A stretch of 64,000 bases of DNA from an uncultured Clostridiaceae bacterium (GTDB lineage Bacteria; Bacillota; Clostridia; TANB77; CAG-508), in assembly GCA_946493085.1 (NCBI GenBank), contig CAMMAC010000002.1, forward strand, positions 19,479 through 83,478, read 5' to 3'. Position numbers and translations under genes: made by a program. Shown one piece after another: positions 1,260-8,373 of the stretch. The notes beneath the pieces are model-generated. The model saw nothing but the letters and a program-made list of their open reading frames with translations, was not told the origin of the DNA and made no database searches. Numbering within the stretch: position 1 is the first letter of the stretch; each line of letters starts with the position of its first letter.

Positions 1260-2315
1260 ATGATACAAGATAGAAAAAAAGGAAAAGTATTATTAGGAAT
1301 GAGTGGCGGAGTAGATAGTTCTGTAGCAGCAGTTTTGTTGAAACAAGCAGGTTTTGAAGTAATAGGGGCAACGATGCAATTGTATCAAAATAAAGAAGAA
1401 GGAGAAAAAACACTGCAAGATGCCAAAAAAGTTTGTGAAAAACTAGAAATACCACATTATACCATAGATTGTACAAAGGAATTTCGTACTCATGTAGTAG
1501 AAAATTTTATTGGGTGCTATGCTTGTGCTAAAACGCCCAACCCATGTGTAGAGTGTAATCAATATTTAAAATTTGGTGCATTTTATGAGAAAGCAAAGGA
1601 ATTAGGTTGTGAGTATATTGCCACAGGTCATTATGCTAAAATAGAGTATGAGGAAACTTATGGAACTTATGTGATGAAAAAATCACAAGCCAAGGAGAAA
1701 GATCAGACCTACTTTTTGTATGGCATCCAAAAAGAAATATTACCACATGTTCTATTTCCATTAGAAGAATTAGAAGACAAAGAACAAGTAAGAAAGATAG
1801 CAGAAGAGTATGGTTTATCTGTTGCACATAAAAAGGATAGTCAAGAAATTTGCTTTATACCAGATAATGATTATGTTTCTTTCTTAAAGAAAGAGGGACA
1901 AAAAGAAAAACAAGGAAACATTGTACTAAAAAATGGTAACATTTTAGGACAACATAAAGGATTAATGCATTATACGGTGGGACAAAGAAAAGGCTTGGGT
2001 ATTGCTTATGAAAAACCATTATATGTCATTTACCTAAAAGCAGAAACAAATGAAGTAATTGTAGGGGAAGAAGCAGATTTATATAGAAACAATTTGTTAG
2101 CTACTAATGTAAATTTTCTATTACCAATTTCTTCTGACGAGGTAAATGTAACAGCTAAAATACGTTATCGTGCAAAAGAAGCACAGGCAACTATAAAAAG
2201 ACAGGAAGAAAATTGGTTAGTAACTTTTCAAGAACCGCAAAGAGCTATTACCCCAGGGCAATCCGTAGTTTTTTACATAGGAGATATGGTGTTAGGGGGA
2301 GGAATTATAAAATAA
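1260..2315 (+). CDS. mnmA: tRNA-specific 2-thiouridylase MnmA (intact copy)
   Basis: PP-loop GMSGGVDSSVAA at N-terminus, CVECNQYLKF, C-terminal ITPGQSVVFY. 351 aa, typical length. Confidence 0.9.
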   Translation: MIQDRKKGKVLLGMSGGVDSSVAAVLLKQAGFEVIGATMQLYQNKEEGEKTLQDAKKVCEKLEIPHYTIDCTKEFRTHVVENFIGCYACAKTPNPCVECNQYLKFGAFYEKAKELGCEYIATGHYAKIEYEETYGTYVMKKSQAKEKDQTYFLYGIQKEILPHVLFPLEELEDKEQVRKIAEEYGLSVAHKKDSQEICFIPDNDYVSFLKKEGQKEKQGNIVLKNGNILGQHKGLMHYTVGQRKGLGIAYEKPLYVIYLKAETNEVIVGEEADLYRNNLLATNVNFLLPISSDEVNVTAKIRYRAKEAQATIKRQEENWLVTFQEPQRAITPGQSVVFYIGDMVLGGGIIK

Positions 2316-2340
2316 AGAAGAGTACATACAACTAGAAAAA
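1664..2340 (+). repeat. Direct repeat copy 1 (~0.68 kb, 3' two-thirds of mnmA plus ~25 nt downstream)
   Basis: Read by eye against 7697..8373 at a constant offset of 6033 nt. Interior looks identical; about 5 mismatches cluster at the two ends. Confidence 0.9.
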
Positions 2341-2451
2341 ACAAAAAAAGTTACATAATATGTTGCAAGAAATAAAAATGTATGGTAAAATATGTATGAA
2401 ATTGTAAAGTACTATAGTTTAAGTATACTATAAAATATGTGTGAGGTATAA

Positions 2452-3612
2452 ATGAACTGTTATATAAAAGATTATATAAAAAGGATAAATATTAATTTAA
2501 AAAAAATACCAATTGAATTAGAAATAAAAAAAAATACAATTCAAGAAAAATTTGATATGATAAATTATAAAGTTCAATATGTTAATATTCAAAATAATTC
2601 TATTAATGGAGTAATAAAAAAAGGAAAGAGTAAGTATTTTTTTAAAATCTTAAAGGAACAAGAGTTTATTAATGAAATAGTTGGTTATATAGAAATAAAA
2701 GATACATTTCCAGTAAATAAAATAATAGAAATATTTGAATTTAAAAATTATTATATATCTATTTATGAATATGAAAAAACAATAGGGAAAAACAAGGGGT
2801 TATTAAATGATTTTTTTGTAGAAAATGATATAAAAATAGAAGAAAATTCACAACAAGTAATTAGTAATATAATAAATGTATATAAAGATAATTTTAATAC
2901 AATAGTAGAAAAAGATAAATATCCAATGGAAAAATTCTTTAAAGATAGAGTAGAGACTAGGTTAAAAAGATGGTACAATAATGAAGAATTATTAAAATAT
3001 ACAATTAATATTAATGGAATAGAAAGTAAGAGTACTATGTCTATTATAGAAGAAACAATAAGTTTTTTTGAAAAGAAACAAAACTTAAAATGTTCATTGA
3101 CGCAAGGAGATCCTAACACATTAAATATTGGAATAAAACCTATTTTTTTTGATTTTGCAACTGCAGGGAATAATCCAATAATTGCTGAATTTTCTACAAT
3201 ATTTTGGTCAGTATTAATAGCAGATGCTTATTTTTGTCCAAAATATCATTCAAATTCATATTATAGACATGAAAAAGTTTATGATAATATAGAAAAATTC
3301 AAACCAAATATAGGATATAAAATAGATAATAAAACTAAAAAAATACATATACAATCCAACATAAAAACAAGTAAAATTAGAATGATTTTTATAAAAGAGT
3401 ATATAAATATGCTAAAAAATTTAAATATAGAAATTCAAAAAGAAGTTATATATTTTTTTACAATGAGAATATTATGTGTGTTTGATATAAGAACAATGGA
3501 CGAAAACGATTATTTTTATAGTATATTTATTTTACATTATTTATATAAAAATTTATCGTATAATATTTATGAAAGCATAATAAATATTATGAATAAATTT
3601 GAAAATATATAA
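2452..3612 (+). CDS. Hypothetical protein, possibly protein-kinase-like fold phosphotransferase (APH/choline-kinase-like)
   Basis: LTQGDPNTLNIG followed by FFDFATAG resembles the catalytic-loop (HxDxxxxN, Q in place of H) and DFG-like motifs. Weak motif-only call. Confidence 0.35.
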   Translation: MNCYIKDYIKRININLKKIPIELEIKKNTIQEKFDMINYKVQYVNIQNNSINGVIKKGKSKYFFKILKEQEFINEIVGYIEIKDTFPVNKIIEIFEFKNYYISIYEYEKTIGKNKGLLNDFFVENDIKIEENSQQVISNIINVYKDNFNTIVEKDKYPMEKFFKDRVETRLKRWYNNEELLKYTININGIESKSTMSIIEETISFFEKKQNLKCSLTQGDPNTLNIGIKPIFFDFATAGNNPIIAEFSTIFWSVLIADAYFCPKYHSNSYYRHEKVYDNIEKFKPNIGYKIDNKTKKIHIQSNIKTSKIRMIFIKEYINMLKNLNIEIQKEVIYFFTMRILCVFDIRTMDENDYFYSIFILHYLYKNLSYNIYESIINIMNKFENI

Positions 3613-3637
3613 ATATTTAATTATGGGAGGTAAAAAA

Positions 3638-4111
3638 ATGAGAAAAGGAACTGTAAGAGGAATTATTATAAAAGATAATAATTTAGCTGTAATCAAAAGA
3701 GTAAAGGAAACAGAAGGAAAGATACGAACATATTATGTATTGCCAGGAGGAGGTGTTGAAGAAAACGAAACACTTGAAAAAGCAATGAAAAGAGAAGCAA
3801 AAGAAGAATTAGGTGTTGAAATAAATATAAAAGGAACATTATATAAATTTGTAAATATGGGAGAATTGAATCATTTTATGTTATGTGAAATTATAGATGG
3901 TGAGATTGGAACAGGCACAGGACCAGAATTTACAAGTAAAGAATATAGCAATAGAGGACAGTATATACCTATGTTAATATCGAGAAACGAAATGTCTAAT
4001 ATAGATTTAGTACCAAATGAAATAAGAGATAAGATTTTAGAAGATACTAAAAATAATAAAATGTTAGAGGAACTTTTAAAAGTAATAGAAGATAGAGAAG
4101 AAGAAAGGTAA
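3638..4111 (+). CDS. NUDIX hydrolase
   Basis: NUDIX box GGGVEENETLEKAMKREAKEELG. RBS gggagg 7 nt upstream of ATG 3638. Confidence 0.8.
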   Translation: MRKGTVRGIIIKDNNLAVIKRVKETEGKIRTYYVLPGGGVEENETLEKAMKREAKEELGVEINIKGTLYKFVNMGELNHFMLCEIIDGEIGTGTGPEFTSKEYSNRGQYIPMLISRNEMSNIDLVPNEIRDKILEDTKNNKMLEELLKVIEDREEER

Positions 4112-7506: not shown

Positions 7507-7640
7507 TAAAAATATTTGATAATAAACAAAATAATAGCAGCTGCTGTAATTTTAGCAGTTTTACATACTAGATTAGATATAAATAAAGCATTAAATAGAT
7601 TAAAAAGAGAGATTAACTAAAATAACATAAAAAACTAAAA

Positions 7641-7675
7641 AAAGAATAGTTTAAAAAGCTATTCTTTTTTCTTTT
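7641..7675 (+). terminator. Rho-independent terminator at right end of inserted segment
   Basis: aaagaatag / ctattcttt stem followed by a T-run. Confidence 0.7.
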
Positions 7676-7696
7676 GTATGACGGCATATCAATGCA

Positions 7697-8348
7697 AACT
7701 TATGTAATGAAAAAGTCACAAGCCAAGGAGAAAGATCAGACCTACTTTTTGTATGGCATCCAAAAAGAAATATTACCACATGTTCTATTTCCATTAGAAG
7801 AATTAGAAGACAAAGAACAAGTAAGAAAGATAGCAGAAGAGTATGGTTTATCTGTTGCACATAAAAAGGATAGTCAAGAAATTTGCTTTATACCAGATAA
7901 TGATTATGTTTCTTTCTTAAAGAAAGAGGGACAAAAAGAAAAACAAGGAAACATTGTACTAAAAAATGGTAACATTTTAGGACAACATAAAGGATTAATG
8001 CATTATACGGTGGGACAAAGAAAAGGCTTGGGTATTGCTTATGAAAAACCATTATATGTCATTTACCTAAAAGCAGAAACAAATGAAGTAATTGTAGGGG
8101 AAGAAGCAGATTTATATAGAAACAATTTGTTAGCTACTAATGTAAATTTTCTATTACCAATTTCTTCTGACGAGGTAAATGTAACAGCTAAAATACGTTA
8201 TCGTGCAAAAGAAGCACAGGCAACTATAAAAAGACAGGAAGAAAATTGGTTAGTAACTTTTCAAGAACCGCAAAGAGCTATTACCCCAGGGCAATCCGTA
8301 GTTTTTTACATAGGAGATATGGTGTTAGGTGGAGGAATTATAAAATAA
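7697..8348 (+). pseudogene. mnmA: 5'-truncated mnmA fragment (C-terminal ~216 codons, no PP-loop domain)
   Basis: Protein identical to the C-terminus of 1260..2315 from YVMKKSQAKEKDQTYF onward. Upstream sequence is unrelated and no N-terminal domain is present. Confidence 0.85.
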
Positions 8349-8373
8349 AAAAGAGTACATAAAACTGTAAAAA
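7697..8373 (+). repeat. Direct repeat copy 2 (mnmA 3' part plus ~25 nt)
   Basis: See copy 1. Offset of 6033 nt, confirmed by the two stop codons at 2315 and 8348. Confidence 0.9.

Follow-up and report, generated by a model that had tools for sequence, protein, structure and literature searches.

An island without a recombinase between two long copies of the mnmA 3′ end in an uncultured gut Clostridiaceae bacterium

The mnmA locus and its two repeat copies

The stretch of DNA analysed here (the window) comprises 64,000 nt of contig CAMMAC010000002.1 (GenBank assembly GCA_946493085.1, positions 19,479 to 83,478, forward strand) and belongs to an uncultured Clostridiaceae bacterium of the GTDB lineage Bacteria; Bacillota; Clostridia; TANB77; CAG-508. 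Near its start, the gene mnmA, which encodes a tRNA 2-thiouridylase, is followed by an inserted island of low GC content and, behind the island, by a second, displaced copy of the mnmA 3′ part. The first-pass annotation of the sequence had described an intact mnmA, a direct repeat of about 0.68 kb and a truncated second mnmA copy, and all three features stand with refined coordinates:

1260..2315, plus strand: mnmA, tRNA 2-thiouridylase of 351 aa; an intact open reading frame (ORF) with the three MnmA Pfam domains tRNA_Me_trans, _M and _C
1664..2341, plus strand: first copy of the repeat (c1), with the 3′ part of mnmA and 26 nt past the stop codon
2342..7696, plus strand: inserted island of 5355 nt with 22.7% GC; one operon, from promoter to terminator
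7697..8374, plus strand: repeat copy 2 (c2), the 5′-truncated, displaced mnmA 3′ part

The two copies form a direct repeat of exactly 678 nt at an offset of 6033, the sole long repeat within the window. They differ at seven of the 678 positions (1673, 1682, 2297, 2317, 2329, 2334 and 2335), all of them no more than 45 nt from a repeat boundary, and the interior (1683–2296, 614 nt) shows no differences in the window. The last 217 codons of mnmA lie inside c1. The second copy consists of the same 217 codons with the 26 nt that follow, and lacks the first 134 codons; its ORF (7692–8348, 218 aa) starts with an ATG that arises at the junction between island and c2. The GC content of the island contrasts with 33.0% in the upstream flank and 30.9% in the downstream flank, in agreement with the foreign look reported earlier. 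The island is thus flanked by two direct copies of the homology arm, and mnmA is present once in intact and once in truncated form, which is the arrangement produced by insertion-duplication.

The locus was retrieved from public metagenome assemblies via exact-protein look-ups, and the contigs are cited here by L numbers. Occupied sites were found in at least eight samples and precise empty sites in at least ten contigs. The 144-kb contig L009/L047 spans both repeat copies; L001/L004/L049 (MEGAHIT, k141) contain the upstream flank, c1, the island and the start of c2, with distinct alleles in each copy in L001; L014 and L048 (79.5 kb) cover the island, c2 and the downstream flank; and L002 and L050–L053 are further occupied contigs. 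The duplication itself is no assembly artefact, a possibility that the first-pass annotation had raised: both copies lie on one contig in L009/L047, and L001, L014 and L048 support the same structure.

The empty sites anticipated by that annotation also exist. In L013, L016 and L018/L046, mnmA is directly joined to the sequence from position 8375 onward, at 97–99% identity. Empty sites in more distant lineages (L012 and L062–L067) lack, in addition, a 463-nt spacer that lies behind c2 in the window. In L055, from a species about 85% identical, the site is empty and the synteny aspS–mnmA–p78–deacetylase–murT–gatD is kept. When metagenomes were scanned with a 36-mer taken from the interior of the repeat, no new site emerged, only an already known empty one.

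Among L009, L001, L014, L048, L050 and L005, the island shows 0–1 differences per 5355 nt (0–0.02%). The flanks differ from the window far more: by 3.7–7.1% downstream in L048, 3.8% downstream in L014, 0.95% upstream and 2.1% downstream in L009 and 1.1% upstream in L002. By this comparison, the island is a single recent lineage, shared by four backgrounds or more. It was either the island that moved or the flanks that were swapped by recombination; since the island has no mobility gene, homologous recombination would be the vehicle in both cases.

The alleles at the ends of the two arms are consistent with insertion-duplication, as the first-pass annotation had proposed. On the left, c1 carries 1673G and 1682A in all occupied strains; its right end is fixed for 2297G, 2317G, 2329C, 2334A and 2335G. 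This combination, GGCAG, is present in all nine contigs covering the right end of c1 and was seen at no empty site. The left end of c2 is fixed for the equivalents of 1673A and 1682G, and its right end is fixed for TAAGT, the sequence of the close empty sites L013, L016 and L018. The arms are therefore hybrid in the manner of insertion-duplication: the island-proximal ends are of donor type and fixed, and the distal end of c2 is native.

The right end of c1 is informative about its source. The 26 nt past the mnmA stop codon form the left edge of the 463-nt spacer module. In lineages without the spacer, the stop codon leads straight into the promoter of p78; in L013, L016, L018 and most occupied contigs, the spacer shows 0/463 differences. 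The c1 copy of the first 26 nt of the spacer has four differences from this invariant form, and these differences predate the insertion, because the island itself has gathered only 0–1 differences in 5355 nt. The alleles 1673A and 2297G are native in the divergent L062/L012 lineages, which favours import over mutation. Judging from these alleles, the c1 arm is foreign, having arrived with the island from a diverged source, and is not an in-situ duplicate. A simple tandem or segmental duplication does not describe the locus, as 5355 nt of mobile-element-like, low-GC DNA lie between the copies and the right end of c1 is diverged from an otherwise invariant native sequence.

A ‘D patch’ of c1 (1749–1853) was also considered as proof of a foreign arm and was dropped: its V164 and E169 occur in other native MnmA alleles, and only G185 is unique in this comparison. 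In a short contig, L003 (1085 nt; window equivalent 1248–2332), the island-type mnmA allele with its unique G185 is joined to the native alleles 2297T, 2317A and 2329A of the 3′ untranslated region. Such a mix is what deletion of the island between the repeats would be expected to leave; it could also be a chimeric path through a collapsed repeat.

The spacer (8375–8837, between c2 and the next gene) resembles a type I toxin–antitoxin module, and its layout suggests that it may be one. On the plus strand, it contains the best promoter match of the region (8389–8417) and a terminator (8461–8486), giving a predicted small RNA of about 70 nt. On the minus strand, in convergent orientation, a promoter (8716–8688) and an AGGAGG ribosome-binding site (RBS) precede a hydrophobic ORF of 31 aa (8634–8539; MTSFMLIWILLQKIEKLEEELNTYKNNTDKN), followed by a terminator (8528–8505). 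The predicted duplex of small RNA and mRNA covers the RBS and the start codon, with an energy of −37 kcal/mol versus −23 ± 3.4 for shuffled sequences. The spacer is invariant in the contigs named above though the neighbouring sequences differ by 2–4%, and it is missing from the lineages L012, L062–L067 and L055. No match to the module was found in Rfam or NCBIfam.

The identity of the repeat interior, also pointed out in the first-pass annotation, holds for all 614 nt in the window, but it is not evidence of recency. In ERZ12590396 (L001 and L010), a strain whose flanks and island match the window without a difference along about 16 kb nevertheless has 23 differences between c1 and c2, and the c2 of L014 differs from the c1 of the window at the same 23 sites. 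The longest identical run between these sites is 125 nt, which only the k = 141 assembly exceeds. Overall, the arms are 96.6–99% identical, with identical runs of 65–125 nt, enough for RecA.

Secondary gene conversion and assembly collapse may each explain the window’s identical interior, and the two readings are rated about equal. Under collapse, which has roughly an even chance of being correct, about 23 sites would separate the copies in every strain (96.6% identity), and the assembler would have popped the bubbles formed by single-nucleotide differences and threaded one collapsed edge twice; this touches the degree of identity and leaves the existence of the duplication intact. The seven surviving mismatches all lie 7–45 nt from a repeat boundary, below the usual k of 55, as collapse would predict. 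The only assembly with a k (141) above the 125-nt run is also the one in which the copies show 23 differences, and its strain matches the window elsewhere over about 16 kb. L050 consists of exactly the collapsed edge, the island and the collapsed edge again (6647 = 6033 + 614), with mixed alleles, and L009 bears the same mixed alleles in both copies. On the other hand, gene conversion between 678-nt repeats 5.4 kb apart is biologically expected and leaves the same edge pattern. Furthermore, the c1 allele occupies all four interior variant blocks both in the window (both copies) and in the c2 of L048, a contig that covers c2 without c1; if alleles were chosen at random, the chance would be 1/16 in each case. 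The mosaic of interior alleles, tried as proof of gene conversion, was downgraded, as bubble-popping yields the same picture. The circle-like contigs L005 (6120 nt = 6033 + 87, with an 87-nt terminal overlap) and L050 are uninformative, since contigs of these lengths also arise when a de Bruijn graph loops through a direct repeat. For metagenome-assembled genomes (MAGs) built from short reads, this means that an identical repeat interior with edge mismatches can be made by the assembler.

The cargo and its relatives

The island encodes the following cassette and accompanying signals:

2363..2391, plus strand: promoter-like TTGCAA-17-TAAAAT with an extended TG, upstream of p386 (consensus match only)
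2452..3612, plus strand: p386, predicted small-molecule kinase with an APH/protein-kinase-like fold (AlphaFold2 and Foldseek)
3638..4111, plus strand: NUDIX hydrolase A, 157 aa (Pfam PF00293, 8.8e-11; PADLOC PDC-S07)
4118..4786, plus strand: P-loop kinase A, 222 aa, with a dTMP-kinase-like N-terminus (weak Pfam, NCBIfam and PHROG thymidylate-kinase matches, below curated cut-offs)
4788..5288, plus strand: NUDIX hydrolase B, 166 aa (Pfam PF00293, 5.9e-15)
5285..5851, plus strand: P-loop kinase B, 188 aa, CMP/dNMP-kinase-like (Pfam Cytidylate_kin and AAA_18; PHROG dNMP kinase)
5856..6543, plus strand: nucleotidyltransferase-like gene with the motif GSxGR...DIDI; one frameshift near 5975, called as ORFs of 49 aa and 126 aa
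6564..7235, plus strand: family-2 glycosyltransferase (GT2), 223 aa, catalytic domain only (Pfam PF00535, 7e-37)
7255..7506, plus strand: p83, the last conserved cassette gene, syntenic in L019, L020, L025 and L040
7638..7676, plus strand: terminator-like A/T-rich hairpin with a U-run, 20 nt before c2 (RNAfold, −14.3 kcal/mol)

The ATG of p386 at 2452 is preceded by a GAGG RBS. The p386 sequence matches no Pfam family, and a profile search of PDB sequences gave noise. The AlphaFold2 model (pLDDT 91, pTM 0.90) has its best Foldseek matches in APH(3′)-Ia/IIIa, amicoumacin kinase (AmiN) and FN3K, with APH(9) and APH(4) also found (E-values 5e-7 to 1e-5, TM 0.4–0.6). The predicted structure has the bilobal fold, the catalytic-loop motif (H/Q)xDxxxxN and the metal-binding Asp of APH/protein-kinase-like enzymes; Q218-G-D220-P-N222..N225 and D234 are invariant. 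In L051 (window equivalent about 2261–7770), a 1-nt indel cuts p386 to 228 aa (cluster P0004) in one sample, representing either inactivation of the cargo or a sequencing error.

GT2 spans positions 7–217 of a 334-aa NCBIfam profile. The nucleotidyltransferase was compared by tblastn with an intact 228-aa homologue in L044, which has a weak NTP_transf_2 match; the two frames show 68% and 83% identity, and the frame downstream of the split, at 83%, stays open. The same split into 49 aa and 126 aa is found in L040, where the DNA is only 79.5% identical, so the shared split could reflect a conserved or programmed frameshift rather than decay. No match of the island ORFs reaches a curated equivalog cut-off, and PADLOC matches only one NUDIX candidate. 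The cargo is predicted to encode small-molecule- or nucleotide-modifying enzymes and is probably an accessory module of the resistance or defence type.

The right end of the island is non-coding apart from a small hydrophobic ORF at 7516–7620, which has a TTG start and ends in IINKIIAAAVILAVLHTRLDINKALNRLKREIN; no equivalent of this ORF follows the cassette in L040. A consensus terminator scan made no call at the 7638–7676 hairpin, the stem of which has few G–C pairs. The low-coverage contig L054 (sample ERZ24773322, 2.4×) contains the cassette at 99.96% identity and departs from the window sequence inside this hairpin, at 7662/7663, continuing with 202 nt of unrelated AT-rich DNA (L054 2541–2742). 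It represents either a second genomic context for the cargo or a chimera.

More than 130 proteins belong to the p386 family. Every one comes from an uncultured gut member of the Clostridia or Bacilli, with rabbit, human and chicken gut among the labels; the next best relative is only about 61% identical. The full cassette is syntenic in L019, L020, L025 and L040–L045, and partly so in L024. Its DNA is 79.5% identical to L040/L019, and this similarity has its exact limits at the start codon of p386 and the stop codon of p83 (ending at 7506); identity to L044 is 74–75%. In these relatives, the cassette lies among mobility genes. Two large serine recombinases directly follow it in L040–L042. In L044/L045, it is located between serine recombinases, in company with TnpV, NikA, ParB, a relaxase and an AAA_25 protein. 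In L057–L059, a penicillin-binding-protein (PBP) gene is interrupted by a related cassette that comes with a serine recombinase, and TnpV and HTH genes accompany the cassette in L060/L061. In L035, the cassette is found between tyrosine integrases, next to secA, and in L033 it accompanies Mob_Pre.

The L057 element is about 8.4 kb long (about 7700–16100) and contains a p386 homologue, three unknown genes, SDR, NUDIX and a 576-aa large serine recombinase. Its insertion leaves the PBP gene in two parts, one of 359 aa (PBP_dimer/Transpeptidase) and one of 216 aa (Transpeptidase/PASTA), and the protein is indexed in 63 blocks of the collection.

None of the related cassette loci adjoins mnmA and none is bounded by host-gene duplications. 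Candidates for long flanking repeats around the cassette in other MAGs were rejected, as they consisted of paralogous genes for integrases or recombinases, or of short repeats in non-coding DNA, and not of host-gene ends. The gene contexts link the cargo to mobilizable elements, and the cassette is thus one that rides elsewhere on recombinase-bearing mobilizable elements, a connection that goes beyond the foreign-looking genes of the first-pass annotation.

Some further features of the window and its surroundings lie apart from the island. Just upstream of the window start, L001 contains at 7588–7848 an 86-aa fragment of an IS66-family transposase, about 300 nt upstream of aspS; L009/L047 have different genes at this position. 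A minus-strand tRNA-Trp gene and a tmRNA gene (tag ADQREYALAA) lie side by side at 61376–61931, about 53 kb from the island. Genes for tRNA and tmRNA are classical island targets, and these two are the only tRNA-type targets in the window. Four diverged copies (61–72%) of a 67-nt unit at 50198–51707 probably correspond to a repeated protein motif (KWG-like) within a coding region.

Possible routes of integration

No recombinase or transposase was detected in the island ORFs with Pfam, PADLOC, NCBIfam or PHROGs, and a tblastn search of the whole window with the relatives’ serine recombinases, TnpV and relaxase gave no match. The absence of a recombinase reported in the first pass is thus confirmed for the island with four libraries and for the window with tblastn. 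The locus has neither the own integrase or recombinase of a site-specific element nor, in island or window, the backbone of a Tn4451-like integrative mobilizable element (IME), namely a large serine recombinase, TnpV and a Mob relaxase. The plasmid or phage-plasmid carrier suggested earlier was not found: blastn of 2342–7696 against PLSDB and INPHARED gave trivial GT2-like matches or nothing, and a viral-contig scan with the p386 profile gave no match.

The boundaries of the island coincide with the 678-nt repeat, and a short att core could hide within 1664–1748. Relic att or terminal sequences were sought by comparing 2342–2451 and 7507–7696 with the ends of L040, L044, L057 and L060 and were rejected (local alignment z < 3.2); the 47-aa ORF and NUDIX gene found downstream in L040 have no counterpart at 7400–7800 of the window. 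Recurrent targeting of mnmA was assessed on 120 of about 8000 matches to the MnmA C-terminal part. The only truncated copies outside the species among the matches listed, P0127 and P0201, are frameshifted genes without islands, and no 5′-truncated mnmA copy was seen behind an island in other taxa. This argues against a dedicated family of mnmA-targeting elements.

The explanation towards which the evidence leans, with confidence a little above even, is that the island is a recombinase-less derivative of a mobilizable element, integrated and maintained through a captured mnmA homology arm. A mobilizable element carrying the cassette would have sat next to mnmA in a donor. Aberrant excision, similar to that forming lambda-dgal, would have generated a circle containing 678 nt of the mnmA end and the left part of the element with the cassette, the recombinase being left behind. 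This circle could then have entered new chromosomes by a RecA-type single crossover in the mnmA arm. The arm would originate from a diverged lineage, the accessory operon of 5.36 kb arriving attached to an mnmA 3′ end. In the product, c1 would be native 5′ sequence fused to the imported arm, so that mnmA stays intact, and c2 would be the displaced native 3′ end, a silent fragment behind the island. Since the insertion, the island would have been gained, lost and moved among backgrounds by host homologous recombination, and a crossover between the arms may swap their sequences or remove or multiply the island; its excision by this route is plausible.

Several points weigh against this explanation. 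Neither a donor locus with the element beside mnmA nor a circular form was observed, and the circle would have neither oriT nor mob genes with which to move between cells. The non-coding ends of the island are dissimilar to those of related elements, which leaves the coding cassette as the basis for descent. Along their whole length, the c1 and the c2 of the resolved strain each resemble one coherent haplotype, and 1682A travels with L018-like alleles and 1682G with L013/L016-like alleles. This hints at an exchange point at or very near the left boundary, 1663/1664, although the hint is based on four empty-site haplotypes of a highly recombining species. A left-edge exchange is predicted by site-specific or illegitimate joining, and a RecA crossover would fall there only about 10% of the time.

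Captured-arm integration may have a further consequence, which is a speculative extension and rather unlikely: the island may be a working, recombinase-free mobile cassette borne by its homology arm, excising as a circle through RecA and re-integrating in naive strains in the Campbell manner. If so, a captured piece of an essential gene would be the only integration module it needs to spread through the species; its origin would lie in the aberrant excision of a mobilizable element that traded its recombinase for host DNA; and its invariance across backgrounds diverged by 1–7% would signify active spread, beyond recombination of the flanks.

The data are compatible both with homologous (Campbell) integration and with site-specific integration that supplies a replacement end, and do not decide between them. 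The latter is on balance improbable, though a serious contender. It would place the integration at about 1663/1664 or within the identical stretch 1683–1748, with the 678 nt as a replacement 3′ end and the recombinase later deleted or acting in trans. Every related cassette context has serine or tyrosine recombinases, usually at the right end, which is the part missing here, and the serine-recombinase relatives do insert inside genes, as L057 does in the PBP gene. The coherent c1 and c2 haplotypes of the resolved strain fit an exchange at the extreme left of the repeat, and a hot spot of integration adjacent to mnmA exists in Erysipelothrix. Against such integration stand the lack of a recombinase in the island or window and the lack of an mnmA remnant behind islands of other taxa among the MnmA matches listed. 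A coding replacement end of 652 nt would be far longer than in known cases, and replacement ends are not known for serine recombinases. The ends of the island are unlike those of related elements, and the arm is only 3–4% off native mnmA, pointing to a donor in the same species complex and not to a long-co-evolved element.

A two-step history is very unlikely. Here, a serine-recombinase element would have split mnmA at 1663/1664, the gene would have been restored by homology-facilitated illegitimate repair from another strain, and the recombinase end would have been deleted later. Relatives of the element do split genes (L057–L059), and such a history would explain why c2 is wholly native and c1 wholly imported. 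Loss of MnmA would select strongly for repair. Nevertheless, three rare events are needed, no trace of attL or of the element’s left-end sequence is present, and no intermediate with a split mnmA and an island was seen; L055 and L056 have a split mnmA without any island.

Least probable of all is an origin in situ, by illegitimate or replicative insertion that duplicated a 678-nt target (or by tandem duplication with capture) and later divergence of the copies: a contiguous chromosomal direct duplication does abut the insert exactly, without an att core, yet the copies would have started identical, whereas the last 45 nt of c1 differ at five sites from a sequence invariant elsewhere, the near-invariance of the island leaves no time for these changes, 1673A and 2297G match alleles native to other lineages and thus indicate import, and GGCAG is fixed in all nine contigs.

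Comparison with known systems

Public metagenomes contain both the occupied and the empty allele of the locus, which makes it a clean natural case of how the cargo of a mobile element may become a chromosomal island without a recombinase and still move between strains. Island finders based on integrases and short att sites would miss such islands. The long arms would make the operon deletable and amplifiable, which is relevant if the antibiotic-modifying-like cargo gives a dosage-dependent phenotype. The cassette family itself is uncharacterised and occurs widely on the mobilizable elements of Clostridia and Bacilli from the gut; it is a candidate for a new accessory module of the resistance or defence type.

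The closest structural parallel is offered by Campbell-type insertion-duplications and the lambda-dgal and dbio elements. As in these, a complete and a truncated copy of the target flank the insert in direct orientation, the insert-proximal ends of the repeat are of donor type and the distal ends native, no recombinase is present in the insert, and the structure is reversible and amplifiable by homologous recombination. Unlike laboratory constructs of this type, the present island is a natural population polymorphism in an uncultured gut bacterium, in which the circle, its origin and its RecA dependence are putative.

Phage 21 and e14 integrate at icd and supply a replacement 3′ end. SGI1 inserts at the 3′ end of trmE (PMC8409611). 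The mnmA island shares with these elements a position in the 3′ part of a conserved gene, in this case a tRNA-modification gene like trmE, which is kept intact by a substitute end while the native end is displaced behind the island. Those elements, however, encode an integrase and use a short core with a replacement of tens to about 165 nt, whereas the island has no integrase and a 678-nt arm at 96.6–99% identity.

The microcin H47 island of Escherichia coli is, according to the abstracts of PMC3191183 and PMC5426353, an integrase-less island that uses short direct repeats as attachment sites in a RecA-independent recombination. Both islands are small, lack a site-specific recombinase, are flanked by direct repeats and are present or absent among strains; the repeats at mnmA differ in being a long duplication of host coding sequence, suited to RecA.

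Tn4451-like serine-recombinase mobilizable elements of Firmicutes are related to the island through their cargo, which is homologous and syntenic in the related gut MAGs. In contrast to them, the island is devoid of the recombinase, TnpV, relaxase and HTH genes, and its boundaries are host-gene repeats and not att sites.

In Erysipelothrix rhusiopathiae, a hot spot adjacent to mnmA holds IME_Er30, the SE-1 prophage and GI_Er147 (PMC12785378). Mobile elements thus gather beside mnmA in another low-GC Firmicute, but those elements are 30–98 kb in size and contain recombinases, and no mnmA duplication is described for them (PMC12785378). Set beside all these systems, the locus is best classed as a naturally occurring, polymorphic island that lacks a recombinase, is enclosed by long copies of the end of an essential gene and carries a cargo apparently derived from mobilizable elements.

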